64,000 nt of DNA from an uncultured Gemmatimonadales bacterium (lineage in GTDB: Bacteria; Gemmatimonadota; Gemmatimonadetes; Gemmatimonadales; GWC2-71-9), in assembly GCA_963828735.1 (NCBI GenBank), contig CAWHFW010000002.1, positions 512,001-576,000 of the forward strand, read 5' to 3'. Under the pieces are notes generated by a model. The model saw nothing but the letters and a program-made list of their open reading frames with translations, did not search any database and was not told the origin of the DNA. The position numbers and the translations under genes were made by a program. Below are positions 26,309-64,000 of this stretch, one piece after another. Positions within the stretch are counted from its first letter, which is position 1. Each line of letters opens with the position of its first letter.

Positions 26309-26860
26309 TTATGTCGGCATGAGGCCACGGAGTCGGAACGGCTCCCGGAAGGGCACCAACCGCACGGTCCGTTCGGCCTGGCGCGGTTCGACGGAATCGG
26401 CTCGGGGCATCGGCTCCTCGACCGCCCGCAGCGTCCGGTAGTCGACCACCACGAACCGCCGCGGGCTCGCCGCCTCGCCCAGCAGCGTAAGACCGCGCCC
26501 GTCCCGCGACACCGTCCACAGGCCTACATAGAGGAAAGAGATCTCCTCGTCGCAGGCCTGGTCACGATGGGTTTGACGGAGGACGAACAGGCTGTCGGGG
26601 TACAGCGTGAGCGAGATGTCGGTGCGCGGGCCGGCCGCGCACGCGGTACCGCTGGCGTATGTCCCGGGCACCGTCAGCCGCCGGTCGGCCACCGGTCGCT
26701 CGCCTGTGAAAGGCGTCGGAGCGGTTGCATCGCTCCGGCTCGTGGCGGGGACGCAACCCAGCACCCCGGCGAGCACCACCGCGCCGACGCGGACCCCCCA
26801 GCGAAAACCCGCGGCGAGCTCAGGCGGGGCGGCTCTCGGCCTGCTTGCTGGGTTCGGCAT
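26309..26860 (-). CDS. Lipoprotein with an NlpE N-terminal-like domain
   Basis: Lipobox VLGC; PGTYASGTAC...LTLYPDSLFVLRQT...GLW resembles the NlpE N-domain; start uncertain. Confidence 0.55.
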   Translation of the reverse strand: MPNPASRPRAAPPELAAGFRWGVRVGAVVLAGVLGCVPATSRSDATAPTPFTGERPVADRRLTVPGTYASGTACAAGPRTDISLTLYPDSLFVLRQTHRDQACDEEISFLYVGLWTVSRDGRGLTLLGEAASPRRFVVVDYRTLRAVEEPMPRADSVEPRQAERTVRLVPFREPFRLRGLMPT

Positions 26861-27506
26861 GGAGCTGAATCGGCTCTCGTTCCTGGAGGCCGAAGACGGT
26901 CGCCGCCAGGGCACCACCCGCCAACGGGCCGATGATGTAGAGCCAGAGGTTGGCCATCGTGCCGCCGGACACGGACGCGTCCACCAGGATAGGCCCGATG
27001 CCGACGGCGGGATTGAACGCGCCGCCCGAGATCGGTCCGCCGGCGAACGCCGCGACGACGATGGTGAAGCCGATCGCCAGGCCGTAGAACGAATTGCCGT
27101 GCGTCTTGGCGGACGCCGCCGAGTTGAGGACCACCAGCGCCAGCGCGAACGTATAGAGGATTTCGATCAACAACGCCCGCATCCCCGACGCGTCCGCGGC
27201 GGGAGCGGGCGCGAAGGTCCGACCCGTGACCGCGAGGACCACGAGGGCCGCGACCAGGGCGCCCGCCACCTGGCTCACGATGTACCCGGTGAACTCGGCC
27301 ACCGACGCCATCTTGCCCCGGAGCAGGACGGCCAGCGAGACGGCGGGGTTGTAGTGCCCACCGGACACGTGCCCGCCCATGTACACCATCACCATGAGGG
27401 AGCAGCCGATGGCCAATGGCGCGAGGGCGGTGCCGTTCAGCACCGTGAGCCCGATGGTGAGCACGAGGAAGAACGTCCCGATGAACTCGGTCAGGTAGTT
27501 CCGCAT
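26820..27506 (-). CDS. Aquaporin (MIP family)
   Basis: EFIGTF; two NPA boxes (SGGHYNPAVS, SGGAFNPAV). Confidence 0.96.
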   Translation of the reverse strand: MRNYLTEFIGTFFLVLTIGLTVLNGTALAPLAIGCSLMVMVYMGGHVSGGHYNPAVSLAVLLRGKMASVAEFTGYIVSQVAGALVAALVVLAVTGRTFAPAPAADASGMRALLIEILYTFALALVVLNSAASAKTHGNSFYGLAIGFTIVVAAFAGGPISGGAFNPAVGIGPILVDASVSGGTMANLWLYIIGPLAGGALAATVFGLQEREPIQLHAEPSKQAESRPA

Positions 27507-27521
27507 GAGCTCCGTCCCGGC

Positions 27522-28520
27522 TCAGGCACTCGTGCCGACGTGCGCGTGGTGAACGACGCACCGACCGATGGTCATGTCCAGCCAACGATGGTTCAGCGTC
27601 AGCGATCGCCCGATCAGCACCATCCGGCTGCGCGGCGGCTCCCTGCCCCACAGCGTGTCCCGCTCGAGGGTCCAACGCGAGCCAACGAGGTGGAAGTCGT
27701 ATCGATGCAACGGATCTTCCTCGAGGAAGAGCACACCGGTTCCCCGCAGGATCCCGTCCGGCAGGTTCGCCGCCCACCACCGCACGGCGGCGCCGTCGAG
27801 CGGGTCATCGAAGCCGCAAGCCCAGGAGCCATACTCCGGGTCGCCGAGGATGGGCTCGGCCAGGGTGACGCTCGATGGTGGGGCCGGCCGGGTCGGCTCT
27901 TCCCGTTCCTGCGACAGCACGAGCGGCAGGTGGACGCGCCCGTGCGAGGTCTCGACCAGCCGCGCCGCGGGAACGAACTCCGAGATCCAGTCGCACACCG
28001 CGTTCTTCTCCATCTCCGTGACCTGATCGACCTTGTTGAGGACGATCAGATCGGCCGTAAGGAGCTGCTGCCTGAGCGGTGCGCCGATGATGCGGTCCAG
28101 CGCGTGGGTCCGCACCGCCTCGGCATCCACCACCACGACCGTGCCGTCGAGCCGAAGCCCACCCAGGCCGACGGACTCGGCGATGCGTCGAGGGTTGGAC
28201 ATGCCACTCGCCTCGATCAGGATCTGATCGGGCGGCAACCTGCGGCTTCGAAGCCCCGCGAGCGCGAGGACCAGCTCGGTGGATCGAGCGCAGCAGATGC
28301 AGCCGTCCGCGAGGGTGATGGTGCCCCCGGGTTCGAGCAACTCGGGGTCGAGGTCGGTGCTGCCGAAATCGTTCACGATCACGGCTAGCCGGCGCTCGCG
28401 GCTCTGGGCGAGGACGTGGTTCACGAGCGTGGTTTTGCCCGCGCCGAGATGGCCCGCGATGATGGTCACGGGAATCGCGTCCCTACGGCCGACTTGATGG
28501 TTCAGCATTTTGACCCGCAT
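27522..28520 (-). CDS. CobW/COG0523 G3E GTPase metallochaperone
   Basis: IPVTIIAGHLGAGKTT, VNDFG, GCICC, IEASG and LNKVD motifs. Confidence 0.92.
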   Translation of the reverse strand: MRVKMLNHQVGRRDAIPVTIIAGHLGAGKTTLVNHVLAQSRERRLAVIVNDFGSTDLDPELLEPGGTITLADGCICCARSTELVLALAGLRSRRLPPDQILIEASGMSNPRRIAESVGLGGLRLDGTVVVVDAEAVRTHALDRIIGAPLRQQLLTADLIVLNKVDQVTEMEKNAVCDWISEFVPAARLVETSHGRVHLPLVLSQEREEPTRPAPPSSVTLAEPILGDPEYGSWACGFDDPLDGAAVRWWAANLPDGILRGTGVLFLEEDPLHRYDFHLVGSRWTLERDTLWGREPPRSRMVLIGRSLTLNHRWLDMTIGRCVVHHAHVGTSA

Positions 28521-28534
28521 CAGGGCGAGCTCGA

Positions 28535-29530
28535 TCAGTCGCGTGACGGACGGGCGACGCACCGGAACCCGACGTGGCACGTGGACGTGTCCACTGGCTC
28601 GGGGAAGCGTGCGGCCGGGCGATAGCGACGGCAGTAGTTCGGTGCGCAGAGATGCGAGCCGCCCTTGAGCACCTTGCGCGGTATGCGGATAGCGGGCTGG
28701 GACGGGTCGTAGCTCTCGACCTCTGCGCACCCGCGCGGATTGTGCGGGGCGCAGCAGGCCTTCGGTGGATCGCCCGGATGGCTCGCCCGATACCAGTCGG
28801 TGGTCCACTCCCACACGTTGCCGATCATGTCGAACAACCCGTACCCGTTCTCCGGGAAGGTCCCGACGGGTGAGGTCCCCTCGTAGCCGTCCTCCACTCG
28901 ATTGTGCCAGGGGAACTCACCCTGCCAGGTGTTGGCCATGACGTGGCCCTCTGGCATGAACTGCTCCCCCCAGGCGTAGGTCGCTCCGTCCAGACCACCG
29001 CGGGCCGCAAACTCCCACTCGGCTTCCGTCGGCAGCGCCTTGCCCGCCCATCGGGCGTACGCCTCGGCATCGCTGTAAGCCACGTGCACGACCGGATGCC
29101 GCTCCAGACCCGCGATCGAGCTCCCGGGGCCCTGTGGATGGCGCCAGTCGGCATCCTTCACGTACTGCCACCAGTTGCCGATCTGGCCTCGATCCACCGG
29201 GCCCGCCGGCTTCACGAACACCAGTGAGCCGGCGTAGAGCATCTCCGGCAACGCGCCGGGATAGTCCTCCGGCTTCGGCACGAGCTCCGCGAAGGTGACG
29301 TATCCCGTCTCCTCCACGAAGCGCGCGAACTCCTCATTGGTGACCGGCCGGCGGTCGATCCAGAAGCCATCGACCGAGGCCTGGTGCACCGGGCGCTCCT
29401 CCGGGTAGTGCCGATCGGAACCCATCCGGAAGCCGCCTCCCGCGATCCACACCATCTCCGGATCGGGGGCCGCCGAGCCCAGCGCCTGGGGCGCGAGCTC
29501 GGCGGGTACGGCAGAAGTCTCGTGATTCAT
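28535..29530 (-). CDS. Formylglycine-generating enzyme (sulfatase maturase) family
   Basis: LPTEAEWEFAARGG, GNVWEW and KGGSHLCAPNYCRRYRPAAR...GFRC motifs with the catalytic Cys pair. Confidence 0.93.
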   Translation of the reverse strand: MNHETSAVPAELAPQALGSAAPDPEMVWIAGGGFRMGSDRHYPEERPVHQASVDGFWIDRRPVTNEEFARFVEETGYVTFAELVPKPEDYPGALPEMLYAGSLVFVKPAGPVDRGQIGNWWQYVKDADWRHPQGPGSSIAGLERHPVVHVAYSDAEAYARWAGKALPTEAEWEFAARGGLDGATYAWGEQFMPEGHVMANTWQGEFPWHNRVEDGYEGTSPVGTFPENGYGLFDMIGNVWEWTTDWYRASHPGDPPKACCAPHNPRGCAEVESYDPSQPAIRIPRKVLKGGSHLCAPNYCRRYRPAARFPEPVDTSTCHVGFRCVARPSRD

Positions 29531-29549
29531 CTGCCACCCCTGCTCCAGG

Positions 29550-30920
29550 TCAGTTGAGCCGGGTGAGCTCAACCCGACGATTCTGCGCCCGTCCCTCAGC
29601 CGTCTTGTTGGATGCGATGGGCTTGTCCGGGCCGTAGCCGTGGGACGTGACCTGGCCAGGGGACGCGCCGTTCGCCTCGAGGAAGTCCTCGACCGACTTC
29701 GCACGTGACGCCGAGAGCTTCAGGTTGCTCTTGCGCGATCCGCTGTTGTCGGTGTGACCGGCGACCTCCACCCGGACCTCGGGGTTGGCCGCCAGGGCCT
29801 TGGCGGTTTCAACCAGGGCCGCCTTGCTCTCGTCACTCAGCGTGCTCTTGCCCGACGCGAAGGTCACCCCCGGCAGGACGATGGTCTTGGCCGCTCCCTG
29901 GAACAGCTGGGGGCATCCGGTCGCGTCGACTGCCTGGCCGTTCGGCGTGTCGGGGCACTTGTCCGCCTCGTCGTTCACCCCGTCGGCGTCGGTGTCGGGT
30001 ATGCAGCCCTTGGCGTCCACCTTCGCACCTGCCGGCGTGTCGGCGCACTGGTCCAGATTGTCCTTCACGCCATCGCCGTCGGTGTCCTTCTGGCTGGCGG
30101 AGCATCCGTCGTGATCCGCCGGTTCCCCGGCCGGCGTGTCGGCGCACTTGTCGATGTTGTCGATGACGCCGTCATGGTCCTTGTCGAGCTGCTCCGGGGC
30201 GCACCCGTTCGCGTCCACCTTGGCGCCGGCGGCGGTGTTCGGGCACTTGTCGGCGTTGTCCTTCACGCCGTCCTTGTCGGTGTCCCGCTGGCTCGCCGAG
30301 CAGCCGGAGGCATCCACGGCCTCGCCCACGGGCGTGCCGAGACACTTGTCGCCGCCGTCCTCGACGCCATCCTTGTCGCGATCGTACTTGTTGTTGAGCA
30401 GCAGCAGAGCGCCGGCCTGGACGCCGAGGTTCATGTAGTTGTCAAGCGTCGAGTTCTTCGGGCTCGGCACGTAGTCCAGCGTCCCGTCGACCTGGAGCGC
30501 GAGGACCTTGTTCAGACCGAAGCGGAGGCCCAGCAGGCCGGTGATGCCATCGTCGCTGGCATCCGCATCCTTGCCGAACTTCTCGTGTACGTAGCCCGCA
30601 CCCAACCGAATCGCGCTGGACCAGCCGCGGAGCGGGAGGTGGAGGACGAGGCGACCGCGGATGGGCGTGTCGGAGATGTTCCCGATGTCGTTGGTGTCGC
30701 TGGTGCTGGTGGTCGCCGCCTCGGCCTCGAGCGCCACGTTGCGCGCGAAGAAGATGCCAAGGAAGCCTCCGCCCCCGACTTTGTCTTTGAGGTTGAGGTC
30801 GTTGTCGTAGAAGGAATAGCGGGCGAAGCCGCCGATCTCGAAGGCACCCGGGCTTTGGGCGACACAGGGGGCCGCGACTGCCAGCAGGACTCCGAGGAGG
30901 GATAACGTGCGCGTGACCAT
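29550..30920 (-). CDS. OmpA/OprF-like outer membrane protein with TSP3-like Ca-binding repeats
   Basis: Signal peptide; N-terminal barrel; D-x-DGV-x-D-x-x-D-x-C repeats; GHTD...LSASRA...NRRVE OmpA C-domain. Confidence 0.93.
   Translation of the reverse strand: MVTRTLSLLGVLLAVAAPCVAQSPGAFEIGGFARYSFYDNDLNLKDKVGGGGFLGIFFARNVALEAEAATTSTSDTNDIGNISDTPIRGRLVLHLPLRGWSSAIRLGAGYVHEKFGKDADASDDGITGLLGLRFGLNKVLALQVDGTLDYVPSPKNSTLDNYMNLGVQAGALLLLNNKYDRDKDGVEDGGDKCLGTPVGEAVDASGCSASQRDTDKDGVKDNADKCPNTAAGAKVDANGCAPEQLDKDHDGVIDNIDKCADTPAGEPADHDGCSASQKDTDGDGVKDNLDQCADTPAGAKVDAKGCIPDTDADGVNDEADKCPDTPNGQAVDATGCPQLFQGAAKTIVLPGVTFASGKSTLSDESKAALVETAKALAANPEVRVEVAGHTDNSGSRKSNLKLSASRAKSVEDFLEANGASPGQVTSHGYGPDKPIASNKTAEGRAQNRRVELTRLN
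29930..30385 (-). repeat. Five intragenic thrombospondin type 3-like repeats (about 30-33 aa each)
   Basis: DRDKDGVEDGGDKC, DTDKDGVKDNADKC, DKDHDGVIDNIDKC, DTDGDGVKDNLDQC, DTDADGVNDEADKC. Confidence 0.85.
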
Positions 30921-30977
30921 ACCAGCTCCGCTTAGGGGGGCGACGGCACAGTAGGCGGCCGCCAGAGTGAGCGATAC

Positions 30978-30991
30978 TGAACCTTCGGCTA
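30978..30991 (-). promoter_or_regulatory. Regulon box 1 (ompA-FGE-cobW-aquaporin-nlpE unit)
   Basis: Minus TAGCCGAAGGTTCA, 24 nt, TACTGT. Confidence 0.7.
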
Positions 30992-31002
30992 GGTGCTGAA
31001 GC

Positions 31003-31380
31003 CTAGGGCGCGATCAAGGACCAGATCAAAGCAGCCGCCTGAACCAGGATCAGGACGACCGACATGAGGAATGCCCCGGACTTGCGCGCCGGCGGTGCGC
31101 CGAGCCGCTTGCGCTCGGACACGTACTGAACAGTGGCCCCCGAGAGCGTGAGCAGGCCGAGCGCCATGATGGCGAGCCCCAGCGAGCGCGGCTCCAGATC
31201 CCTGGAGGCCGAGGGGTGGACCGGGTGTTCCTCACGGACGAACTCGAAGAACTTGAGCAGGCTGAAGCCGAAGGTGAGCATCGACAGGCCGGTGCGAACC
31301 CACGCCATCTGGGTGCGCTCGAGGGCCATCATCGTGCGCTCGCGAGCGAGCTCGTCGGAGCTGAGACGGGGAGCCGTCAT
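31003..31380 (-). CDS. DUF202/YidH-family inner membrane protein
   Basis: LARERTMMALERTQMAWVRTGLSMLTFGF motif; 3 TM segments. Confidence 0.88.
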   Translation of the reverse strand: MTAPRLSSDELARERTMMALERTQMAWVRTGLSMLTFGFSLLKFFEFVREEHPVHPSASRDLEPRSLGLAIMALGLLTLSGATVQYVSERKRLGAPPARKSGAFLMSVVLILVQAAALIWSLIAP

Positions 31381-31536
31381 CGCGGACAAGTAGAGTGATG
31401 GGGCAACCAGGTCCCAGTCGGCGCCAGCTTCGGGGGCCGCCGAAGTTGAATCGCAGGTTGAGCCGAGCCTCAGCCGCCGAGCGCACAAGAGAACAGCCGG
31501 CTCGTCACACTGCCGCGAGACACCAGACGTGGCCAC

Positions 31537-31550
31537 TGGACCTTCGTACA
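31537..31550 (-). promoter_or_regulatory. Regulon box 2 (DUF202 gene)
   Basis: Minus TGTACGAAGGTCCA, 24 nt, CAGTGT. Confidence 0.75.
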
Positions 31551-31609
31551 TGCGCGTCCGAAGCGGCTGACCGGCCCGCGTTCGAGCGGCCGCCAAGGCA
31601 CCGCAAGGT

Positions 31610-31623
31610 TACACCAAAGTTCA
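31610..31623 (+). promoter_or_regulatory. Regulon box 3 (sensor kinase; possible autoregulation)
   Basis: TACACCAAAGTTCA, 24 nt, GGTAAT; ATG follows after a 6-nt gap. Confidence 0.7.
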
Positions 31624-31659
31624 AGTTGCGCCGATTCCCCGCTGGGGGGTAATTGGGCA

Positions 31660-33624
31660 ATGGAAGGACAGCTCTTCTCGCAGGTTCTCCGGGATTCGAG
31701 AGTGCCCTTTATCGACGCCGACCGCAGCCCGGGTCGGGCCGTGCCGAGCCAGAGTGCCGCCTCACACGGGGTGGTTGCTTCGGTTGCGCTGTGGGCCGTA
31801 CTGCCCTTCTTCGCCCCTCGGATCTATGCCGGCATCGTCATCCTCATCCAGGGCGCCCTGATCGTGGCGCTCGTCCTCACGGCGCGGCGGCAGGCGCGGG
31901 CGCAGCGCGCCCTCGACGAGCGGCTCCGGTTCGAGCGACTCCTCGGCGAGCTCTCCGCCGACTTCGTCAGCGTGCTGCCCGATCGCGTCGACGAGGAGAT
32001 CGGCCGCTGGTTGAGCCGCGTGCTGGAACTCTTCCGGGTGGATCGGGCCGCGCTCGTCCAGTTCTCGTCCCACACCAGTCAGCTCCGCGTCACCCATGTG
32101 TCCGACGACGAGCCGGGCTCCCCGCTTGCCACCTCGTACGAGGTCGATGAACTGCGCGCGTGCGCCGAGGAGATCAGGCAGGGCCGGGTGGTGCGCCTGA
32201 CCCGGCTGGCGGATCTCCCGGCGAAGGGACAGGCGGACCGGGTGACGCTGGCCGCGGCCGGCGTGCGATCGATGCTGGCGGCGCCGCTCTCCGTGGGAGG
32301 CAACACCATCGGGTTCCTGGGGCTCATGATCCGGCGCGGGGAGCGGGCCTGGTCCGACGAAGAGGTGCATCGGCTCCAGCTGGTGAGCGGGGTGTTCGCC
32401 AACGCCCTGGTCCGGCGGAACGGCGACCGGGCCCTCCGCAGCAGCGACGCACTGGGCGGCGCCGTGCTGGCGTCCCTCCCATCCCGGGTCGCGGTGCTGG
32501 ACCGGATCGGCACCATCATCCGGGTGAACGACGCGTGGCTGGACGCGGCGCTGGTGATCGGAGCCGACAAGATCGCGATCGGTGCCAACTACCTCGACGT
32601 GTGTCGCGCCGCGACCCAGCATGAGCCGGCGGCGTGCGAGGTCGTCCAGGGGATCGAGTCCGTCCTGGCCGGCAAGGAGCCCGCCGGCTTCCGGCACGAG
32701 TATGCCTCCTCTTCCCCCGCGGGTGAGCACTGGTACGAGCTGGTGGTCGAACCGCTGCGCCGGCCGCAGGGGGGCGCCGTGGTGACCCTCACCGACTCCA
32801 CGACGCGGAAGCGGGCGGAGGTGGAGGCGCAGATGCACCGCGCCGAGGCGGCCCACGCGTCCCGCGCGGCCACTTTGGGCGAGCTGGCGGCGGGCCTGGC
32901 TCACGAGCTCAACCAGCCGCTGGCCGCGATCCTGACGAACGTGCAGGCGAGCAGGCGGCTGCTCACGAGTCAGCCCCCGCGGATCGAGGTGCTGCGTGAG
33001 ATCCTGGACGACATCGCGGCCGACGACGTGCGGGCCGCAGAGATCATCCGGCGGATGCGCGCGCTGCTCAAGAAGGGCCCGATGGACGTGCAGCCGCTCG
33101 ACCTGAACGAGCTCACCGGCGACGTGCTGCGACTGGTGGCGTCCGACGCGATCCTCCGCCGGGTCCGGGTCCACCCGCAGCTCGAGCCGGATCTCCCCGG
33201 CATCACCGGCGATCGGGTCCAGCTCCAGCAGGTCATCCTCAACCTCGTGGTGAATGGCCTCGAGGCCATGTCCGACACGCTGCCCGCGCGCCGGCATCTC
33301 GTCATCCGGACGGCCCAGCCGGAGGAATCCTGGGTCGAAATCACGGTGCGCGATCATGGTCCCGGCATCTCCGCCGAGGCCCTGAGCCGCATCTACGAGC
33401 CGTTTTTCTCAACCAAGCGGGACGGCCTCGGGATGGGGCTGTCCATCTGCCGGTCCATCGCCGAAGCCCATGGGGGCCGCTTGCAGGCATCCAATCACCC
33501 CGACGGGGGAGCCACGGTGGCATTCGGGCTTCCGGTCGCGGGGATGGGCCGCCGCACAGACTCCGCGGGTCGACAGGAGCGACGTTCCTATGCCAGATAT
33601 GACGCCGACAGTCTTCGTCGTTGA
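31660..33624 (+). CDS. Sensor histidine kinase (TM-GAF-PAS-HisKA-HATPase, FixL/NodV-like)
   Basis: LGELAAGLAHELNQPL H-box; QVILNLVVNG, DHGPG, EPFFSTK and GMGLSI boxes. Confidence 0.94.
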   Translation: MEGQLFSQVLRDSRVPFIDADRSPGRAVPSQSAASHGVVASVALWAVLPFFAPRIYAGIVILIQGALIVALVLTARRQARAQRALDERLRFERLLGELSADFVSVLPDRVDEEIGRWLSRVLELFRVDRAALVQFSSHTSQLRVTHVSDDEPGSPLATSYEVDELRACAEEIRQGRVVRLTRLADLPAKGQADRVTLAAAGVRSMLAAPLSVGGNTIGFLGLMIRRGERAWSDEEVHRLQLVSGVFANALVRRNGDRALRSSDALGGAVLASLPSRVAVLDRIGTIIRVNDAWLDAALVIGADKIAIGANYLDVCRAATQHEPAACEVVQGIESVLAGKEPAGFRHEYASSSPAGEHWYELVVEPLRRPQGGAVVTLTDSTTRKRAEVEAQMHRAEAAHASRAATLGELAAGLAHELNQPLAAILTNVQASRRLLTSQPPRIEVLREILDDIAADDVRAAEIIRRMRALLKKGPMDVQPLDLNELTGDVLRLVASDAILRRVRVHPQLEPDLPGITGDRVQLQQVILNLVVNGLEAMSDTLPARRHLVIRTAQPEESWVEITVRDHGPGISAEALSRIYEPFFSTKRDGLGMGLSICRSIAEAHGGRLQASNHPDGGATVAFGLPVAGMGRRTDSAGRQERRSYARYDADSLRR

Positions 33625-34294
33625 CGACGACGCCTCGTTCTGCCGAGCCGTCGAGCGGTTACTGAACAGCTTCGGCCACCGGGTGGAGACATTCGCCTCC
33701 CCGACCGAGTTCGTGAACCGCCTGCGCCCCGAAGAGCCGGGCTGCGTGCTGCTCGACATGCGGATGCCCGAGCTCCCGGGGCTCGAGGTGCAGCGGCTGG
33801 TCACTGCATCAGGCTTCGCGATGCCGATCATCTTCGTGAGCGGCAGCGCCGACGTCGAAAGTTGCGTCTGGGCCATGCGTGGCGGGGCCGCGGACATTCT
33901 CCTCAAACCCTTCCAGGAGGAGGAGCTGCTCGGCGCCGTCGGACGGGCCCTGGCCAAGGACGTGGAGCGGCGCCGGGAAATCGGCGCGCTGCGTGAGCTG
34001 CGCGGCCGGCTGGCCTCGCTCACACCGCGGGAGCTCGAGGTCTTCCGGCTCGTGGCAAAGGGGATGCTCAACAAACAGATTGCCGTGGTCCTCGGCACCA
34101 AGGAAGGCACCGTGAAGATGCACCGGGGCCACGTGATGCGAAAACTCCAGCTCGGGTCCGTCGCGGAGCTGGTGAATCTGGCCGACCGTTTGAGCCTGGA
34201 CGACCCCTGCCCTGCGCTCCACGCACGGGCCGGCCGGTTCCGGATCGAGACCGGCGCGGGCCGGATGGCCGTCGGCGCGGGCGCCGGCGCCTGA
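33590..34294 (+). CDS. FixJ/LuxR-family DNA-binding response regulator
   Basis: VFVVDDD, LLDMRMP and KPF receiver motifs; LTPRELEV...NKQIA...TVKMHRGHVMRKL HTH; AGGAG RBS. Confidence 0.94.
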   Translation: MPDMTPTVFVVDDDASFCRAVERLLNSFGHRVETFASPTEFVNRLRPEEPGCVLLDMRMPELPGLEVQRLVTASGFAMPIIFVSGSADVESCVWAMRGGAADILLKPFQEEELLGAVGRALAKDVERRREIGALRELRGRLASLTPRELEVFRLVAKGMLNKQIAVVLGTKEGTVKMHRGHVMRKLQLGSVAELVNLADRLSLDDPCPALHARAGRFRIETGAGRMAVGAGAGA

Positions 34295-34317
34295 GCTCGC
34301 CCGACTCCGCCCGGCAC

Positions 34318-34331
34318 TCCACCAAGGTCCA
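34318..34331 (+). promoter_or_regulatory. Regulon box 4 (single-domain receiver)
   Basis: TCCACCAAGGTCCA, 24 nt, TACGTT. Confidence 0.75.
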
Positions 34332-34417
34332 CTGTCTCGCCGGGAGACGCGGTCCTACGTTGCGCCCAGTAGGTACGGCACGCCGTGCTATCGTCTTAGC
34401 TCTCACACAGCGAGCGT

Positions 34418-34855
34418 ATGGGCGCTCCCGGCCGGAAAACGCCGCAACCGCCTGGCGGTGGCGCATCAGGGTCGCCGGTCGTGGCGGTCATCGAGGATGA
34501 TCCCTCGTTCCGTCGAGCGCTGAGCCGATCCCTGAGCCTCCGCGGGTTCCGCACGGACGTGTTCGCCTCGGCCGAGGAGTTCCTGCGGCACCAGGGGGCT
34601 GAGCACGCCGACTGCATCGTGCTCGACATTCACCTGGGCGGGATGAGCGGCTTTGAACTGCAGGCCGAGCTCGCGAGTCGGCCGTCGGCGCCGCCGATCA
34701 TCTTCATCACCGCGTTCGACGATCCCGCCACGCGCCAGCGAGCCCACGAGGCCGGGGCCGCCGCCTACCTCCAGAAGCCCTTCGACGACAAGTCCTTGAT
34801 CGACGCCATCGACCGGGCGGCCCGCCTGCCACGCGGGGGTCGCGGCGGCTCCTAG
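34418..34855 (+). CDS. Single-domain response regulator (FixT/CheY-like receiver)
   Basis: VIEDD, VLDIHLGGMSG, FITAFD and YLQKPF motifs; no output domain. Confidence 0.9.
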   Translation: MGAPGRKTPQPPGGGASGSPVVAVIEDDPSFRRALSRSLSLRGFRTDVFASAEEFLRHQGAEHADCIVLDIHLGGMSGFELQAELASRPSAPPIIFITAFDDPATRQRAHEAGAAAYLQKPFDDKSLIDAIDRAARLPRGGRGGS

Positions 34856-34866
34856 CCGAAAGTTCA
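34853..34866 (+). promoter_or_regulatory. Regulon box 5 (FadL-like OMP)
   Basis: TAGCCGAAAGTTCA, 25 nt, TATGTT; 17 of 18 nt identical to box 1 including the following GTAT. Confidence 0.75.
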
Positions 34867-34925
34867 GTATCACCGGTCCGTCGGCGGTCGGTATGTTCGC
34901 CGCCCAACCGAGAGAGCCGGCTGCC

Positions 34926-36296: not shown

Positions 36297-36307
36297 GTCG
36301 TCGAACC

Positions 36308-36702
36308 TCAGCCCGTCAGGGGCTGGGCCCGAGGCGCCGGGTTCCCTTCCGCCCTCGCACCTGCCTGCTCGAGCTCGGCGAGCTCCTTGATGTCCTTCTC
36401 GAGGAAATAGTTCAGGAAGGTTCGGATCACCGCGATCACGGCGAGCTGCCCGATGTCGTTCCAGCTCGGCGAGATCGCCGTGCGCACAATGTCGGCGGCC
36501 AGCTCGAACTCGAGCGCAAGGACCAGCCACCGAGCGAAGTGGACCTAGACGAGCCGCTTCCGACCCAGCGTCTGGGCCGGCTGGGGCTTGAACATTTGCA
36601 CGAGGGCTTGCAGGGCACCGACCGCGATCAGGATCGCCGCGGCCGTTTCGACGCCAGCGCGATCCACCCGGCGATGGCCCGAAAGACCTCCTCCAGGGGC
36701 AA
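36308..36702 (-). pseudogene. DUF1622-family membrane protein pseudogene
   Basis: [43 protein letters not shown] motif; a 1-nt frameshift near 36655 and an in-frame TAG at 36547-36545. Confidence 0.85.
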
Positions 36703-36704
36703 CG

Positions 36705-36959: not shown

Positions 36960-36987
36960 ATAGCCTTCCACGTGCGGGGTTGGCGTT

Positions 36988-37639: not shown

Positions 37640-37653
37640 TAGACCTTGGTCCA
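37640..37653 (-). promoter_or_regulatory. Regulon box 6 (lipoprotein unit)
   Basis: Minus TGGACCAAGGTCTA, 24 nt, GATGCT. Confidence 0.78.
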
Positions 37654-42260: not shown

Positions 42261-42274
42261 TGGACCTTGGTGCA
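42261..42274 (-). promoter_or_regulatory. Regulon box 7
   Basis: Minus TGCACCAAGGTCCA, 24 nt, GATGGT. Confidence 0.8.
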
Positions 42275-44399: not shown

Positions 44400-44413
44400 T
44401 GGACTTTGGTAGA
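44400..44413 (-). promoter_or_regulatory. Regulon box 8
   Basis: Minus TCTACCAAAGTCCA, 25 nt, TAAGGT. Confidence 0.78.
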
Positions 44414-45541: not shown

Positions 45542-45555
45542 TATACCAAAGGTCA
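45542..45555 (-). promoter_or_regulatory. Regulon box 9 (HAD gene)
   Basis: Minus TGACCTTTGGTATA, 25 nt, CATGTT. Confidence 0.7.
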
Positions 45556-48486: not shown

Positions 48487-48500
48487 TGGACCTTGGTAGG
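48487..48500 (-). promoter_or_regulatory. Regulon box 11 (coiled-coil gene and sulfatase remnant)
   Basis: Minus CCTACCAAGGTCCA, 24 nt, AATACT. Confidence 0.72.
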
Positions 48501-48587: not shown

Positions 48588-48601
48588 TAGCCCTTGGTCG
48601 A
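48588..48601 (+). promoter_or_regulatory. Regulon box 12 (small OMP)
   Basis: TAGCCCTTGGTCGA, 23 nt, CATCTT. Confidence 0.55.
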
Positions 48602-49567: not shown

Positions 49568-49581
49568 TGGACTTTGGTTCA
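49568..49581 (-). promoter_or_regulatory. Regulon box 13 (no convincing downstream CDS)
   Basis: Minus TGAACCAAAGTCCA, 24 nt, CACCTT. Confidence 0.72.
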
Positions 49582-51316: not shown

Positions 51317-51330
51317 TGGACCTTCGTGCA
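51317..51330 (-). promoter_or_regulatory. Regulon box 14 (HdeD-VOC)
   Basis: Minus TGCACGAAGGTCCA; shares 17 nt (GGCCACTGGACCTTCGT) with box 2; its -10 element is weak. Confidence 0.75.
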
Positions 51331-51429: not shown

Positions 51430-51443
51430 TGTACCAAAGTTCA
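51430..51443 (+). promoter_or_regulatory. Regulon box 15 (membrane protein-marC)
   Basis: TGTACCAAAGTTCA, 24 nt, AAGATT; GTG follows after a 6-nt gap. Confidence 0.78.
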
Positions 51444-53391: not shown

Positions 53392-53405
53392 TGCACCAAG
53401 GTCCA
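53392..53405 (+). promoter_or_regulatory. Regulon box 16 (DUF3302-HlyD-OMF-SulP-PPK2 unit)
   Basis: TGCACCAAGGTCCA, 25 nt, CACCTT. Confidence 0.8.
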
Positions 53406-53554: not shown

Positions 53555-54031
53555 ATGCGCCTGCGGACGGTTTCACGTGCCTTTGCGGCAGCCCTGGCGG
53601 CCGTGCTTATCCTGCTGCCCCGGCCTCTCCTGGCCGCCGGGCACGGCGCCTTCGAGGACAAGCTCGCCGACATCCTGGTGTGGGTGGTGCTGATTGTCGC
53701 CCCGGTGGTCGGCATCATCGTCTTCCTGGCGGTGCACATCATCCCCGAGAAGGTTGCCGAGAACCGGGAGCATCCGCAGCTCGATGCGATCAAGGTCCTC
53801 TGCCTGCTGTCCCTGGTGTTCGGCGGCATCCTGTGGCCCTTGGCGTGGATCTGGGCCTACACGAAGCCGGTCATGCACAAGATGGCCTACGGCGTTGACC
53901 GCGTCGCGCTCAAGGGGCACGGCGAGGCCGGCGGCACACCGATAACGCCCGCCGACGAGGCCGAGATCGAGCGGCTGCGCCGCCGCCTCCTCGAACTGGA
54001 AACCGGGACCGCCAGCGGTCAGGTTGGGTGA
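53555..54031 (+). CDS. DUF3302 (YiaW/YibI-like) small membrane protein
   Basis: HIIPEKVAENREHPQLDAI...LWPLAWIWAY motif. Confidence 0.85.
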   Translation: MRLRTVSRAFAAALAAVLILLPRPLLAAGHGAFEDKLADILVWVVLIVAPVVGIIVFLAVHIIPEKVAENREHPQLDAIKVLCLLSLVFGGILWPLAWIWAYTKPVMHKMAYGVDRVALKGHGEAGGTPITPADEAEIERLRRRLLELETGTASGQVG

Positions 54032-54038
54032 GGGCGGC

Positions 54039-55166: not shown

Positions 55167-55167
55167 C

Positions 55168-56640: not shown

Positions 56641-56678
56641 GCCCCCGGCGAGGCACTCGGGCGCGATCAGGTGGCCAT

Positions 56679-58409: not shown

Positions 58410-58446
58410 CCGCAGTCTCGCCGTCGTGGTGAGGAGGGAGCGTACC

Positions 58447-59370
58447 ATGAAGACCCGGAAACCGCGCGGTGAGAAAGCGCGACACCAGCTCGACCATGGC
58501 CCCGTGCTGGTGCCGCCCGGGAAAAAACTTCGCCTCAAGGACCGCGACCCGGCCTACGCCGCCGGCTTCGATACCAAAGCGGAGGCGAAAGAGGCCCTGC
58601 TCGAGGACGTCTCGGGACTGGCGCAGGCCCAGGAGCTCTTGTGGGCCAGCAAGGCGTACGCCGTCATCATCATTTTCCAGGCGCTCGATGCGGCCGGGAA
58701 AGACGGCACCATCAAGCACGTCATGTCTGGGGTAAACCCCCAGGGCGTGGACGTGCTCAGCTTCAAGGCGCCCTCCGACGAGGAACGACTGCACCACTTC
58801 CTCTGGCGGCCCATGCGCGCGACGCCGGCCCGCGGGCGCATCGCCATCTTCAATCGCTCCTACTACGAGGAAGTCCTCGTGGTCCGCGTCCATCCGGAGA
58901 TGATCGAAAAGCAATGGGTCCCGCACGACCGGCTCGAGAACGGGTTGGAGGGTCTGTGGAAGGCGCGCTACGAGGACATCAACGCCTTCGAGCGGACCGC
59001 GGTACGCAACAACGTGTGCATCATCAAGTTCTTTCTGCACGTCTCCAAGAGCGAGCAGCGAGAGCGCTTCCTCGAGCGGCTCAACGACCCCGGCAAGAAC
59101 TGGAAGTTCTCCGCCGCGGACCTCCGTGAGCGAGGCCACTGGGACGAGTACCAGAAGGCCTACGAGGACATGCTCAGCGCCACGAGCACGAAGTGGGCGC
59201 CCTGGTACGTGATCCCCGCCGACAAGAAGTGGTTCACCCGTGCCTGCGTGGCGGACATCATCACCAGCCGGATCGAGGAGCTGAGCCTGGCATTCCCCAA
59301 GGTCAGCAAGCGCGACCGGGCGGAGTTGGAGGAAGCACGGGCGGAGTTGGAGAAGGAGGATGGAGACTGA
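58447..59370 (+). CDS. ppk2: Polyphosphate kinase 2 family protein
   Basis: FQALDAAGKDG, FNRSYYE, WKFS..D and APWYVIPADKKW motifs. Confidence 0.93.
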   Translation: MKTRKPRGEKARHQLDHGPVLVPPGKKLRLKDRDPAYAAGFDTKAEAKEALLEDVSGLAQAQELLWASKAYAVIIIFQALDAAGKDGTIKHVMSGVNPQGVDVLSFKAPSDEERLHHFLWRPMRATPARGRIAIFNRSYYEEVLVVRVHPEMIEKQWVPHDRLENGLEGLWKARYEDINAFERTAVRNNVCIIKFFLHVSKSEQRERFLERLNDPGKNWKFSAADLRERGHWDEYQKAYEDMLSATSTKWAPWYVIPADKKWFTRACVADIITSRIEELSLAFPKVSKRDRAELEEARAELEKEDGD

Positions 59371-59850: not shown

Positions 59851-59864
59851 TGTACCAAAGTCCA
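59851..59864 (+). promoter_or_regulatory. Regulon box 17 (DcaP-AspT-decarboxylase unit)
   Basis: TGTACCAAAGTCCA, 23-24 nt, TTATCT/TATCTC. Confidence 0.78.
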
Positions 59865-59969: not shown

Positions 59970-61253
59970 ATGAACCTCATCCCTGCGCAGTATCTCACGA
60001 TGGGCGCACCCCGGGTGGCCCTGGTACCGCCGTCGTCATCGCGCGTCGGAACCGCTCGGCCCTGGCTCATCGTCCTGCTACTCGCCGCCGTCGCCGCGTG
60101 GCCCGTCCGTCCTGTCTCGGCACAGATCATCAAGTGGAGCAGCTCGGACAGCGTGGAGGGAAAGCCCCACTTCGAGGCCTACATCGGTGCCTCGGTCCGC
60201 TTGAATGCGTCACTGGACGACTACGGCCTCCAGGGCAGCTACACGTTCAACCCGGTCAACATCGACACCACGTCCGCTCCCGAGCGCGACGACAACCTGT
60301 TCTCCATCGATCTGAGGCAGACGCGGCTCAAGTTCGGTGGCACGGTGCGCTACGAAAAGTTCGGCGCCGTCGAGGGCTACGTGGAGAGCGATTTCGTCGG
60401 CCCCAGCGGCGCCACGACGCTCCGCCTGCGCAAGGCCTGGGTGAATTTCAAGGGTTGGCGGCTCGGGCAGGAAACGACGACGTTCGGCGTCCAGCAAGGA
60501 TCGGCACCCACCACGGCCGATTTCGACGGTCCGCCGACGACCGTGACGGTTCGGAGCGGCATGTTCCGCTACGCGAAGAAGTTCGAGTCGGGATTTCAGA
60601 TCGTGGCCTCCGCCGAGTCGCCCAAGGTGGACGTCGCCTACCAGGAGTTCGTCGCGCCGGACACCCGGACGACGGATCAGCGGCTTCCCGATCTCGCCGC
60701 CAACGTGTCGAAGGCGGGCGACTGGGGCTACTTCTCGCTGTCCGGGGTGGTGCGGGACATCCGTTTCCGTACGTCGGTCGGCGGAGTGAGCGAGGCGCAG
60801 TCGGCGGTGGGATACGGCGCCAACCTGATGGGCGGTTTTCGCCTCTTCAAGTCCGAGGAGAAGGCCGACGTCCTGTACTACCAGATCATCGCCGGCCAGG
60901 GAATCGGCCGATACCTGGTCTCGCTCTCAGGGCAGAACGCGGATGCCGTGCCCGACCCCGCCACGGGCGACCTGAACGCCGTCCCGGCATACGGCGGCTA
61001 CGCGGCGTACGAGCGCCGCTGGACCCCCCAGTTCTTCAGCACGCTCATCGGCGGCGGCACCATCCTCAAGAATGAGGTCGGGACGACGGTGCAAGATCAG
61101 GCGAAGGACTTCCTGGTCATGTTCAACAGCTTTTACCAGCCCGTCCCGACAATGAAGATCGGGTTCGAGGTCGATTGGGGCCGGAAGGAGACTTTCTCGG
61201 GTATCGAGGCGGAGGCGCTCCGCTACTACCTCATCACCCACTACGACTTCTAG
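59970..61253 (+). CDS. DcaP-like outer membrane porin
   Basis: RQTRL...YVESDF...LRLRKAW...GQ..TTF and PDL motifs; terminal YDF; start uncertain. Confidence 0.78.
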   Translation: MNLIPAQYLTMGAPRVALVPPSSSRVGTARPWLIVLLLAAVAAWPVRPVSAQIIKWSSSDSVEGKPHFEAYIGASVRLNASLDDYGLQGSYTFNPVNIDTTSAPERDDNLFSIDLRQTRLKFGGTVRYEKFGAVEGYVESDFVGPSGATTLRLRKAWVNFKGWRLGQETTTFGVQQGSAPTTADFDGPPTTVTVRSGMFRYAKKFESGFQIVASAESPKVDVAYQEFVAPDTRTTDQRLPDLAANVSKAGDWGYFSLSGVVRDIRFRTSVGGVSEAQSAVGYGANLMGGFRLFKSEEKADVLYYQIIAGQGIGRYLVSLSGQNADAVPDPATGDLNAVPAYGGYAAYERRWTPQFFSTLIGGGTILKNEVGTTVQDQAKDFLVMFNSFYQPVPTMKIGFEVDWGRKETFSGIEAEALRYYLITHYDF

Positions 61254-61264
61254 GGGAGCGCAAC

Positions 61265-62953
61265 ATGTTGATGTGGATAGCCGAGATGCTGCGGAAGTAC
61301 CCTGAGATTGCGATCTACCTGTCTCTCGCCCTCGGGTTCTTCGTCGGAAGTTTCAAGTTCGGCAAGTTTAGCCTGGGCAGCGTGACCGGCGTCCTCCTGA
61401 TGGGCGTGCTGATCGGGCAACTGGAGATCACGATCTCGCCCAACGTGAAATCGGTGTTCTTCCTGATGTTCCTCTTCGCGGTCGGGTACGGCGTCGGCCC
61501 GCAGTTCTTCCGGGGCCTCAAGAGCGACGGTCTTCCCCAGGTCTTTTTCGCGGTGCTGGTCTGCGTGTGCGTCCTCCTCTCCACGTTCGTGGCCGCCAAG
61601 ATCGCGGGCTACAACATCGGCCAGGCTGCGGGGCTTCTCTCCGGCGCGGCCACGATATCGGCCGTGCTCGGCGTCGCCACCGACACGATCAACAATCTCG
61701 GCCTCCCTCCGGACCAGGTGAAGAAGTTGACCGATGCCATGCCGGTGGCATACGCGGTGACCTACCTGTTCGGCACCGCCGGCTCTGCCTGGTTCCTGGC
61801 CTCGATCGGACCGAGGCTCCTGGGAGTGGACCTGGTCAAGGAGTGCAAGGACTACGAGGAGAAGATGGGCGGGGCCGGCGCCGAGGCAGGCGGGCTGTCT
61901 ACCTATCCGATGCTTGCGTTGCGGGCCTATCAGATTCCCACCGGCTCGAAGTTCATCGGTCGGAAGCTCGAGCAGGTGGAGACCGACCTGCGGAAGGGCG
62001 AGCGGCATGTCTGGGCCCAGCGGCTCCGCCGCGGTGGGGCCGTGATGGACGTCGAGCCGAGCCTGGTGGTGGCGGCCGGTGACGTGCTCGCCTTCTCCGG
62101 GCTGCGCGAGGCGCTCCTGGCGAACGTGGCCCACCTGGGCAGCGAGGTGGACGACCGCGAGCTGCTCGACTTCCCGGCGGAGTCGGTGGACGTCGTGGTC
62201 ACCCGGAAGGAGCTCGCGGGGATGACGCTCGGGGAGCTGGCGCAGCGTCATGGCCGGGGTCTGTTCCTGAGCCGGGTGCACCGGGGCGGGCAGGAGATGC
62301 CGCTCAGCGCGGGCCTCAAGATCGATCGCGGCGACGTGCTCCAGATCCTCGGACCGAAAAGCGACATGGCACGCGTGATCGACCTGCTCGGCTACGCCGA
62401 CCGGCCCACCGAGAAGACCGACGTCGTCTTCATGGGCCTGGGCATCGTGTTGGGCGCGCTCGTCGGTGCGCTCAGCTTCAAGGTGGGGGGCGTGCCCCTG
62501 AGCCTCAGCACCAGCGGCGGGGCGCTCATCGCCGGGCTGGTGTGTGGCTACCTGCGCTCGGTGAACCGCGCCTTCGGGCGCATTCCGGAGCCGGCGCTCT
62601 GGGCCTTCAACAACATGGGACTCACGATCTTCATCGCGGTGGTGGGGATCAGCACCGGCCCGGGCTTCGTCAAGGGAATCCAGGAGGCCGGCATCAGTCT
62701 CTTCCTCTGGGGCATCTTCGTGACGCTGATGCCGTTCATCATCAGCATCTACGCGGGCAAGTACATCTTCAAGTTCCACCCGGGCATCCTGCTCGGCGCC
62801 TGTGCCGGCGCCCGTACCACGACCGCGGCGCTGGGCGCGGTCCAGGAAGAGGCGAAGAGCAAGGTCCCCGCGCTCGGCTATACCATCACCTATGCTGTGG
62901 GCAACACGCTCCTGATCGTCTGGGGCGTCGTCATCGTGCTCATGATGAAGTGA
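61265..62953 (+). CDS. aspT: Aspartate:alanine exchanger (AAE/YidE) family antiporter with TrkA-C domains
   Basis: FLFAVGYGVGPQFF, AYAVTYLFGT and GARTTTAALG...PALGYT motifs. Confidence 0.88.
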   Translation: MLMWIAEMLRKYPEIAIYLSLALGFFVGSFKFGKFSLGSVTGVLLMGVLIGQLEITISPNVKSVFFLMFLFAVGYGVGPQFFRGLKSDGLPQVFFAVLVCVCVLLSTFVAAKIAGYNIGQAAGLLSGAATISAVLGVATDTINNLGLPPDQVKKLTDAMPVAYAVTYLFGTAGSAWFLASIGPRLLGVDLVKECKDYEEKMGGAGAEAGGLSTYPMLALRAYQIPTGSKFIGRKLEQVETDLRKGERHVWAQRLRRGGAVMDVEPSLVVAAGDVLAFSGLREALLANVAHLGSEVDDRELLDFPAESVDVVVTRKELAGMTLGELAQRHGRGLFLSRVHRGGQEMPLSAGLKIDRGDVLQILGPKSDMARVIDLLGYADRPTEKTDVVFMGLGIVLGALVGALSFKVGGVPLSLSTSGGALIAGLVCGYLRSVNRAFGRIPEPALWAFNNMGLTIFIAVVGISTGPGFVKGIQEAGISLFLWGIFVTLMPFIISIYAGKYIFKFHPGILLGACAGARTTTAALGAVQEEAKSKVPALGYTITYAVGNTLLIVWGVVIVLMMK

Positions 62954-62967
62954 CCCCTGGAGGAGCA

Positions 62968-64000
62968 ATGACTGTCGCAACTGAAACGTCCAGGAAGACT
63001 TCGGCACGCGCCGAAGCTCCTCGACCCGCCCTCGATCTCGCGGATTTCTTCACCGGGGCCGAGGCACGAGAGGACCGCTGGCAGCGGCTCAACGCCGTCG
63101 CCAAGCGTTTGAGCAGGAAGGGCGCCGGGTCGCCGGCCGAGGCGGCGCGCATCCTGGGCGATCTCGAGCCGCTCGAGGCGTTCTGGGCCTATCCGGGGCG
63201 GCGATCGATCGCGGCGCTGCGAGATCTGCTCGCGCGGGAAGACTACGTGGGCTTCGCCCGCCTCACCGACCGCATCGGCAAGGCCATCCTGCGCGGCACC
63301 TACCGGACCAGCGCGGCGGTCTGGGAGCTGGGCGAGGAGGTGGAGGAACCGGAGGTGTCGATCATCGCGCCCTATCTCGAGGAGGAGCAGCAGCGCCCCT
63401 ACTTCGAGCTGCTTGTGGTGCGCGATGGGGTCCGGGAAGACACCGAGCGCCGCGTTCGGGAGGATATGCGCCGCGCTCGCCGCCCGGAGGATCCCTTCAT
63501 CTACGAGCCGGTCTTGGTCTCGACGTTCGAGGACGCCGTGATCGCCGTGTTGTTCAATCCCAACATCCAGGCCGTGGTCATCTACGATGGCTTCCAGTTC
63601 CGGTCCGCCTCCAACGTACCGGCGCTCGGCACGTTTCTCCAGGATCGGCTCGGCGCGGACGGGAAGGAGCTCCCGGAGGAGGACCACGCGACCGCGCTCG
63701 CTGCCGCGGTCGCCCGCATCCGTCCCGAGCTGGACGTGTACATGCTGACGGACCAGGCAGTCGAGTCGCTGGCGGGAGACCTCGTCACCCGGAACATCCG
63801 GCGGATCTTCTACGACGTCGAGGAGTTCCTGGAGCTTCACCTGGCTATCCTCGATGGCGTCAACGACCGGTACGAGACGCCCTACTTCGACAACCTCAAG
63901 AAATACAGCCGGCGCCCCATCGGCACGTTTCACGCCCTCCCGATCGCTCGGGGAAAGTCGGTGTTTCGGTCCAACTGGATCCGGGACATGGGGCATTTCT
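62968..64000 (+). CDS. Orn/Lys/Arg-family PLP-dependent decarboxylase with long N-terminal region (partial, runs off window end)
   Basis: GGAGG RBS; hand translation gives FWAYPG...RPYFE...FEDA..AVLFN...RPELD...TPYFDNLKKY..RPIGTFHALPIARGKS; frame is open to the window end. Confidence 0.85.
   Translation, partial: MTVATETSRKTSARAEAPRPALDLADFFTGAEAREDRWQRLNAVAKRLSRKGAGSPAEAARILGDLEPLEAFWAYPGRRSIAALRDLLAREDYVGFARLTDRIGKAILRGTYRTSAAVWELGEEVEEPEVSIIAPYLEEEQQRPYFELLVVRDGVREDTERRVREDMRRARRPEDPFIYEPVLVSTFEDAVIAVLFNPNIQAVVIYDGFQFRSASNVPALGTFLQDRLGADGKELPEEDHATALAAAVARIRPELDVYMLTDQAVESLAGDLVTRNIRRIFYDVEEFLELHLAILDGVNDRYETPYFDNLKKYSRRPIGTFHALPIARGKSVFRSNWIRDMGHF

Follow-up and report, generated by a model that had tools for sequence, protein, structure and literature searches.

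The 64,000-nucleotide window analyzed here (G000:C2:512001-576000) is part of the genome of an uncultured Gemmatimonadales bacterium, a genome of 4.78 Mb with 69% G+C in seven contigs. From position 30978 onward, the window carries a recurring 14 bp palindromic box with the consensus TGGACCWWGGTCCA. We consider it probable that the box is an operator, set at a fixed distance from −10-like hexamers and most likely bound by the phosphorylated dimer of RR1, a response regulator encoded among the boxes, and possibly also by RR2, a paralogue of RR1 encoded beyond the window. The boxes flank the regulatory genes themselves: one lies upstream of the operon that encodes a sensor histidine kinase and RR1, and another lies between the RR1 stop codon and the gene for a single-domain receiver, here called the lone receiver. 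A first-pass annotation of the window had proposed that the kinase, the regulator, and the lone receiver drive a clustered regulon via a dyad abutting −35. The sequence analysis supports this core proposal, and the regulator-box-receiver order is conserved. The evidence is laid out below, and the coordinates of the features are collected in Table 1.

Every coordinate and letter of the 16 boxes listed in the annotation matches the sequence. These 16 sites, in both orientations, were used to train a 20-nt matrix, the informative columns of which are T1, A4, C5, W7, W8, G10, T11, and A14. A loose pattern, TNNNCNWWNGNNNA, has 31 matches in the window versus 17.1 ± 3.7 in 100 shuffles, none of which reaches 31. 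In the genome as a whole, the matrix finds 38 sites of at least 16 bits, 26 of at least 18 bits, and 18 of at least 20 bits; the corresponding counts in the reversed, non-complemented genome are 11, 3, and 0. The scores of the window sites themselves are circular because the matrix was trained on them; this circularity does not extend to the relatives, the non-training sites, or the control on the reversed genome. Genes were called crudely from the G+C content of third codon positions (GC3), with open reading frames (ORFs) taken from the first possible start and hence over-long, giving a crude coding fraction of 0.74. By this call, 25 of the 38 sites of at least 16 bits are intergenic, 9 lie no more than 200 nt from the 5′ end of ORFs, and 4 lie deep within ORFs. 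The perfect palindrome TGGACCWWGGTCCA is present in one copy in 4.78 Mb, within an ORF. Real sites nearly always have a weaker promoter-distal half, and the better-kept promoter-proximal half reads, in gene sense, GGTCCA, AGTCCA, or AGTTCA.

The sites are strongly clustered. The annotation had suggested a genome-wide search for enrichment in this region, and 20 of the 38 sites of at least 16 bits indeed fall within one island, C2:542978-604830 (window 30978 to ~92830). At ~62 kb, the island is larger than the annotation's figure of more than 35 kb and reaches ~29 kb past the window end. Another 4 of the 38 sites form a second cluster at C5:2.52-2.576 Mb, and the remaining sites are scattered through the genome. 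The absence of boxes from the gaps of the first 1-30 kb holds by the matrix, which places no intergenic site there. In contrast, the degenerate box formerly listed at 46948 on the minus strand scores −4.2 bits and is not a site; the segment 46948..46961 (−), followed by CATATT at 25 nt, amounts to no more than the promoter-proximal half of a box.

Some matches have an unusual setting. The sequence TGTACCAAGGTGCA at window 22027-22040 scores 23.4 bits and lies deep within a 440-aa ORF (21277-22599) with no Pfam family. Neither side of this match has a −10-like hexamer at 23-25 nt, and it may be a chance match or an internal site. An identical 14-mer, TCGACCTACGTCCA, is found at C5:29670 and C5:890117, deep in two long ORFs and ~1.2-1.5 kb from their starts; the pair probably stems from a coding motif that paralogous genes have kept, not from operator function. 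At the far end of the island, two boxes of 16.2 and 20.7 bits lie 21 bp, or two helical turns, apart between divergent genes (C2:604809-604843), adjoining the gene for a MASE1-PAS histidine kinase.

The distance from box to promoter is also constrained. Read in gene direction, 12 of the 15 training sites scoring at least 15 bits have an xAxxxT hexamer 23-25 nt behind the box. Among the 30 non-training sites of at least 15 bits, 17 have such a hexamer at this distance on at least one side, compared with 15% of 5000 intergenic positions picked at random. The most frequent offset in these non-training sites is 24 nt, with a sharp peak of 14 of 60 strand-sides and 0-7 at other offsets. The spacing that the annotation described for most boxes is thus borne out, also at sites outside the training set. 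An alignment of the spacer between the regulator and receiver genes of seven genomes has as its conserved columns the box, with a few flanking bases, and TACGTT 24 nt behind it. In this alignment the box varies only at positions six and nine, the T, the A, and the final T of the hexamer never change, and the 24 nt between box and hexamer vary freely. Directly behind the boxes there is a tendency to nTGnCn, a weak −35-like hexamer located 17-19 nt ahead of the −10-like hexamer. If transcription starts ~7 nt behind the −10-like hexamer, the box is predicted to extend from about −50 to −37, with its center near −43.5. For comparison, the dyad of a class II-type activator is centered at about −41 to −44 and touches the −35 region.

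Public soil metatranscriptomes match part of the region. One 7.5-kb stretch matched six soil and rhizosphere metatranscriptome runs in small shares. Over window 29500-49400, four runs gave contigs of 160-400 nt with a depth of 2-5 and 95-99% identity; some of these contigs span boxes, some stop close to predicted starts, and none can reveal starts or strand.

The proteins of the cassette have recognizable relatives. The kinase begins with two hydrophobic helices with almost no loop between them. Its core is nearest to FixL (PDB 4GCZ, E 5.9e-51, residues 328-628), and against the NCBIfam FixL model (NF041777) it scores 193.4 bits, where the cut-off is 850, in a match limited to residues 379-627. 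RR1 has the NarL/FixJ-class architecture, with Pfam domains Response_reg (1.8e-23) and GerE (7.4e-18). The best solved relative of RR1 is StyR (1YIO, E 2e-47, residues 5-200), followed by FixJ (5XSO, 1.1e-30), and its score against the NCBIfam FixJ model (NF006900) is 154.8 bits, where the cut-off is 255. Since the FixL and FixJ scores are below the equivalog cut-offs, the kinase-RR1 pair is FixL/FixJ-like, not orthologous. Thus, of the annotation's FixJ-like regulator, the class of a receiver domain joined to GerE stands, but RR1 is nearer to StyR and is not a FixJ orthologue. In the RR1-StyR alignment, VVDDD, LLDMRMP, FVSG, and LKP match the corresponding StyR residues. The lone receiver, the nearest solved relative of which is also StyR, keeps EDD, LDI, FIT, and QKP. 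We take these aligned residues of RR1 and the lone receiver to be the phospho-acceptor pocket, i.e., the acidic pair, Asp, Ser/Thr, and Lys. RR2 and a lone receiver of its own are encoded within the island at C2:594.8-596.0 kb, divergent from a box-preceded TamB-Omp85 operon. A Pfam scan of the window's island genes and of 36 kb beyond found no further DNA-binding regulator except RR2.

The closest loci to RR1 in named records are all from Gemmatimonadota or Gemmatimonadales metagenome-assembled genomes (MAGs). A box between the regulator's stop codon and the receiver gene is found in the present genome (G000), in G008, G011, and G015, and in one of two copies (C214) in G021; the regulator-box-receiver order is also found in six named Gemmatimonadales MAG loci, L048-L053. 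A variant form of the box lies behind the regulator in G001, G019, G024, a Bryobacterales MAG, an alphaproteobacterial MAG, and Sinorhizobium meliloti pSymA. For G001 and G024 (L005, L009), the regulators of which are 43-47% identical, the variant is TATAC-N4-GTATA, and the 24-nt gap, here to CATCAT, is kept. The variants suggest that the outer bases of the half-sites change along with the clade of the regulator. As to other phyla, where the annotation had advised looking for the box beside homologous clusters, the cassette order recurs in Acidobacteriota and Alphaproteobacteria. In 20 loci around unrelated regulators (L011-L030, ~66 kb), no site of at least 12 bits was found.

The boxes of the target genes are conserved as well. 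In 80 kb of G086, where the genes are rearranged, counterparts were found for 11 of the 16 window boxes, each in front of the orthologous gene; the orthologues for the other 5 fell outside this segment. In G021, G008, and G015, boxes are kept before the OmpA, OMP (outer-membrane protein) barrel, DUF3943, and DUF3302-HlyD-OEP genes and before the genes corresponding to 36988, 48658, and 51480.

Motif enrichment tracks the regulator within the genus. The survey took in 97 genomes of the genus with at least 70% completeness, and a genome was called enriched when it had at least 15 matches to TNNACYWWRGTNNA and at least 10 above the backwards-read control. All seven genomes with a regulator at least 68% identical are enriched, with 15-34 matches versus 4-11 in the control. 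Where the regulator is 50-59% identical, 2 of 13 genomes are enriched and two more, G082 and G106, are marginal, and where it is 41-49% identical, none of 18 is enriched. None of the 59 genomes lacking a regulator match at E ≤ 1e-40 is enriched (0 of 58 without G047, a genome flagged as unpublished).

A homologous cassette with fewer boxes occurs in a model bacterium. On pSymA of S. meliloti 1021 (L059, 945852-956460), SMa1684-SMa1686-SMa1688 form a cassette of kinase, regulator, and lone receiver. The S. meliloti regulator is 49% identical to RR1, and a box-like palindrome is found directly behind its stop codon, with TACGAT 24 nt further. The box-like palindromes are at pSymA 948866 and 951505, and both are followed 24 nt later by a −10-like hexamer. 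Facing the divergent arylsulfatase/HAD-phosphatase operon SMa1683-1682-1680 is a box of 17.3 bits that has TAGAGT at this distance, and the HAD protein of this operon is 37% identical to the HAD hydrolase of the window (44420-45355). The S. meliloti cassette has two boxes, as opposed to dozens in the Gemmatimonadales genome. According to PMC4560400, no role is known for SMa1686, and SMa1683 is listed only as down in a tolC mutant (PMC2912261). In the published transcription start site atlas, neither SMa1688 nor the SMa1683 operon has an mRNA start under the conditions mapped (PMC3616915).

We propose the following mechanism. The membrane-anchored GAF-PAS kinase would phosphorylate RR1. The RR1 dimer, docked at about −50 to −37 against the weak −35-like nTGnCn, would recruit RNA polymerase as StyR does. 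Phosphorylated StyR forms dimers, and its activation depends on an inverted-repeat site of high affinity ~40 bp ahead of the transcription start (PMC2442086). RR1 would raise the expression of its own operon as well as that of the lone receiver gene downstream, and the lone receiver would probably act as a phosphate sink or kinase modulator, resulting in feedback. RR1 would turn on the 16 units of the window (38-40 genes) and about 35-40 promoters genome-wide. The targets would include outer-membrane proteins and assembly factors, efflux functions, sulfatases, HdeD-like proteins, carbonic-anhydrase, SulP, and amino-acid-decarboxylase-exchanger functions, polyphosphate kinase 2, and proteins of unknown family.

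Several points weigh against an operator through which RR1 governs a large regulon. An xAxxxT hexamer at 23-25 nt is missing from 13 of the 30 non-training sites and is not clean at 3-4 of the 16 window boxes. The soil metatranscriptome contigs are too short and too shallow for start sites. In S. meliloti, the sole mRNA start mapped for the kinase gene SMa1684, at 948950, is 71 nt behind the box end, not ~37 (PMC3616915); this start is not the predicted box-dependent one. In the survey, 11 of the 13 genomes with a 50-59% identical regulator are not enriched genome-wide, and therefore a regulator of this clade alone does not predict a large regulon. The co-occurrence counts overstate independence because genomes of the same genus are kin, and they are descriptive, not a test. 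Finally, RR1 and RR2 co-occur in all seven enriched genomes of the closest group, and therefore the phyletic pattern cannot separate the two.

This last point bears on who binds the box. RR2 alone, or RR1/RR2 heterodimers, might be the ligand, with RR1 having some other role or no direct role there, an arrangement we regard as unlikely. It would accord with the position of RR2 within the same island, beside its own lone receiver and divergent from the box-preceded TamB-Omp85 operon, with the resemblance of its recognition-helix region to that of RR1, and with the presence of both paralogues in the seven most strongly enriched genomes. However, the box is directly behind the RR1 gene at every RR1 locus, and G008 and G094 are enriched yet have a single regulator match at E ≤ 1e-40; the G008 regulator groups firmly with neither RR1 nor RR2. 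A small chance, lower again, goes to the box as a repression operator, through which the regulator or an unrelated repressor would keep the promoters shut until a signal is received. Palindromic promoter-adjacent operators are also typical of repressors, and the S. meliloti operon and receiver gene, for which the atlas gives no mRNA start under the conditions mapped, would fit a repressed promoter or, equally, a silent activator-dependent one. But the box is positioned ahead of the −35/−10/start region and does not overlap it; the −35-like element (nTGnCn) is weak, as at activator-dependent promoters; and StyR, the closest solved relative, is an activator from the same position.

It is highly improbable that the recurrence of the box is non-regulatory, i.e., due to chance, to a dispersed repeat, or to the −35 part of a promoter for an alternative sigma factor of the extracytoplasmic function (ECF) type. 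An ECF sigma gene is present at 13747-15024, and the half-box resembles GGAAC-type −35 elements. Nevertheless, the box has dyadic symmetry, the 24-nt gap is too long for a −35/−10 spacer, and the reversed genome has no site of at least 20 bits compared with 18 in the genome. The box is not a mobile repeat, as conservation is limited to its 14 bp and the −10-like hexamer and does not include the flanks. The ECF-sigma promoter and dispersed-repeat readings are rejected on account of the spacing, the symmetry, and the unconserved flanks. RR1 bound to the box as an activator remains our preferred explanation.

Table 1. Regulatory genes, boxes, and box-led units. Positions are those of the window unless C2 is given. 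Hexamers are listed with their distance behind the box; the last column names the loci and genomes with a box before the orthologous gene.
Feature	Position	Strand	Score (bits)	Hexamer	Domains or genes behind	Relatives
Sensor histidine kinase	31660..33624	+			GAF, PAS (PAS_4), HisKA, HATPase (Pfam)	Boxes before the kinase in L048-L053 and G086
Response regulator RR1	33590..34294	+			Receiver domain (REC) and GerE/LuxR-type helix-turn-helix; 35-nt overlap with kinase gene	
Lone receiver (single-domain REC)	34418..34855	+			Pfam Response_reg only; own predicted box-dependent promoter	
RR2, RR1 paralogue, beyond window	C2:595319-596047				48% identical to RR1; recognition helix region similar	
Possible five-gene unit behind box 30978	26309..30920	-			OmpA-family, FGE-sulfatase, CobW-type GTPase, MIP channel, NlpE-like (Pfam)	
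Box	30978..30991	-	17.6	TACTGT, 24 nt	OmpA-family gene	Identical box in L031, L048-L051, G086
Box	31537..31550	-	18.4	CAGTGT, 24 nt	DUF202 gene; divergent from box 31610	G086
Box	31610..31623	+	17.2	-10-like TAATTG, 26 nt (outside the 23-25 rule)	Kinase-regulator operon (predicted autoregulation)	See kinase
Box	34318..34331	+	21.0	TACGTT, 24 nt	Lone receiver gene	
Box	34853..34866	+	16.9	TATGTT, 25 nt	FadL-like outer-membrane protein gene (34926-36296)	
Box	37640..37653	-	19.8	GATGCT, 24 nt	36988-37584 and small genes down to 36308	36988-37584: L036, L039, L049, L050, G086
Box	42261..42274	-	23.0	GATGGT, 24 nt	OMP barrel 41501-42184; also GH63/MGH1-like hydrolase (38607-41360, 917 aa) and OMP barrel (37799-38587)	L033, G086
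Box	44400..44413	-	22.1	TAAGGT, 25 nt	92-aa ORF and DUF3943 gene (42694-44363)	DUF3943: L034, L039, G086
Box	45542..45555	-	19.2	CATGTT, 25 nt	HAD-family hydrolase gene (44420-45355)	G086
Box	48487..48500	-	14.7	AATACT, 24 nt	47397-48161 and 47072-47404; divergent from box 48588	G086
Box	48588..48601	+	18.5	CATCTT, 23 nt	48658-49233	Identical box in L033; counterpart in G086
Box	49568..49581	-	21.2	CACCTT, 24 nt	86-aa ORF (49230-49490)	
Box	51317..51330	-	20.5	ATAGCT, 23 nt (misfit to xAxxxT)	DUF308 (HdeD-like)-glyoxalase gene (49855-51261)	
Box	51430..51443	+	24.7	AAGATT, 24 nt	51480-52649 and MarC-family gene (52538-53362)	51480-52649: L037
Box	53392..53405	+	23.3	CACCTT, 25 nt	DUF3302-HlyD-OEP, then SulP, PPK2 (53444-59370)	DUF3302-HlyD-OEP: L037
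Box	59851..59864	+	20.0	TTATCT, 23 nt (misfit to xAxxxT)	DcaP-like porin, Asp-Al_Ex exchanger, Orn/Lys/Arg-decarboxylase-like genes (59970 to beyond 64000)	

The window has 16 box-led units with about 38-40 genes, more than the approximately 30 genes of the annotation. The genes at 26309..30920 may form a single operon, to judge by their shared strand and short or overlapping gaps. Among the box-led genes of the window, three OMP barrels are found around the 917-aa GH63/MGH1-like hydrolase, and several products have no known family. The 92-aa ORF directly behind box 44400 (44085-44363) lies immediately against the DUF3943 gene and in a different frame; it may be a small gene in its own right or an N-terminus displaced by a frameshift. 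Behind box 59851 (59970-64000, L042:168-6534) are genes for a DcaP-like porin, two Asp-Al_Ex (AspT-type) exchangers, and a 1089-aa Orn/Lys/Arg-decarboxylase-like protein, and the group further includes a racemase-like protein and an aminotransferase. This group resembles the modules for amino-acid decarboxylation and exchange that serve acid resistance.

Beyond the window, box-led genes encode two sulfatases, a further DUF308 protein, and TamB-Omp85. Those of the second cluster, on C5, encode carbonic anhydrases, a fatty-acid desaturase, an AI-2E transporter, an MFS transporter, and a DUF937-META-protein-kinase group. The shared theme of outer-membrane make-up and ion/pH handling suggests an envelope and ion/pH stress program, and the role of the regulon may be a response to acid, osmotic stress, or drying.

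Ahead of the box island, the window's 1-16 kb carries genes for ribosomal proteins, EF-Tu, and EF-G. Between the EF-G and S7/S12 genes (13349-15024) are a YCII-domain gene and the gene for an ECF-type sigma factor with a DUF6596 C-terminal domain, an insertion that breaks the usual str-operon order.

The annotation did not recognize a characterized regulon here. In agreement, our literature searches found no paper describing this regulon, and searches for a Gemmatimonadota regulon of this kind returned nothing relevant. The best mechanistic match is StyR of Pseudomonas fluorescens ST acting at the STY2 site of PstyA, StyR being the nearest of the solved structures to RR1; TodS/TodT is the sister system of StyS/StyR. 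The StyR and TodT boxes may be palindromes that share the ACC-WW-GGT center of the box described here. The partner kinases StyS and TodS are of the double type and sense aromatics, whereas the window kinase combines GAF and PAS with only one HisKA-HATPase core. The StyR/TodT systems act on one catabolic promoter with IHF; here, in contrast, there are a separate lone receiver and some 35-40 envelope and transport promoters.

Among NCBIfam models, the kinase core and RR1 are nearest to FixL and FixJ of Alphaproteobacteria, and the presence of a single-domain receiver under the system's control recalls FixT. FixT is a receiver-like inhibitor that provides feedback. A FixT homologue is mentioned in PMC13327599. 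The sensor of FixL is a haem-PAS, whereas the window kinase has GAF and PAS behind membrane helices, and FixJ has few direct targets, compared with the dozens of boxes found here. The published FixJ sites GTAGTTTCCC, GTAMGTAG, and TAAGTAATTTCCCTTA (PMC4999443) share no core with the box TGGACCWWGGTCCA.

The likeness to DosR/DevR of Mycobacterium tuberculosis is of another sort. The DosR consensus is TTSGGGACTWWAGTCCCSAA (PMC2275270), and the likeness includes a palindromic box with a GGAC-N4-GTCC core and a W-W center. The likeness further includes a LuxR-type response regulator, a GAF-bearing kinase, and dozens of stress genes partly clustered around the regulator. However, DosR is not among the best 60 solved matches of RR1. 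The DosS and DosT kinases have tandem GAF domains and HisKA_3, whereas the window kinase has GAF plus PAS and HisKA (PF00512). The genes here are for outer-membrane and transport proteins, and no universal stress proteins were seen among the genes scanned by Pfam. OsdR of Streptomyces coelicolor likewise has a clustered regulon.

To summarize, the regulon is a large, clustered new example of a well-known kind, a LuxR-type dimer on a palindrome by −35 being a textbook mechanism. The finding supplies a predicted operator, candidates for its regulator and kinase, ~40 putatively co-regulated operons, and, for the phylum, a model of promoters with a yAnnnT −10 and a weak −35. Outer-membrane proteins and proteins of unknown family gain a functional context from membership in the regulon. 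Since the same cassette is found on S. meliloti pSymA, the mechanism is testable without culturing the Gemmatimonadales organism, which is the most useful by-product of the analysis. Gemmatimonadota are abundant in soils and almost uncultured; we know of no global stress regulon in the phylum and, to our knowledge, nothing is known about its transcription regulation. We suggest, tentatively and as a possibility that may well prove wrong, that the cassette of kinase, FixJ-StyR-like regulator, own box, and lone receiver is an old, phylum-crossing stress module, the operator of which was recruited to 35-40 Gemmatimonadales promoters. If this is true, one Gemmatimonadales lineage would have gained a global envelope and pH/ion stress regulon, a functional counterpart of RpoS or DosR.

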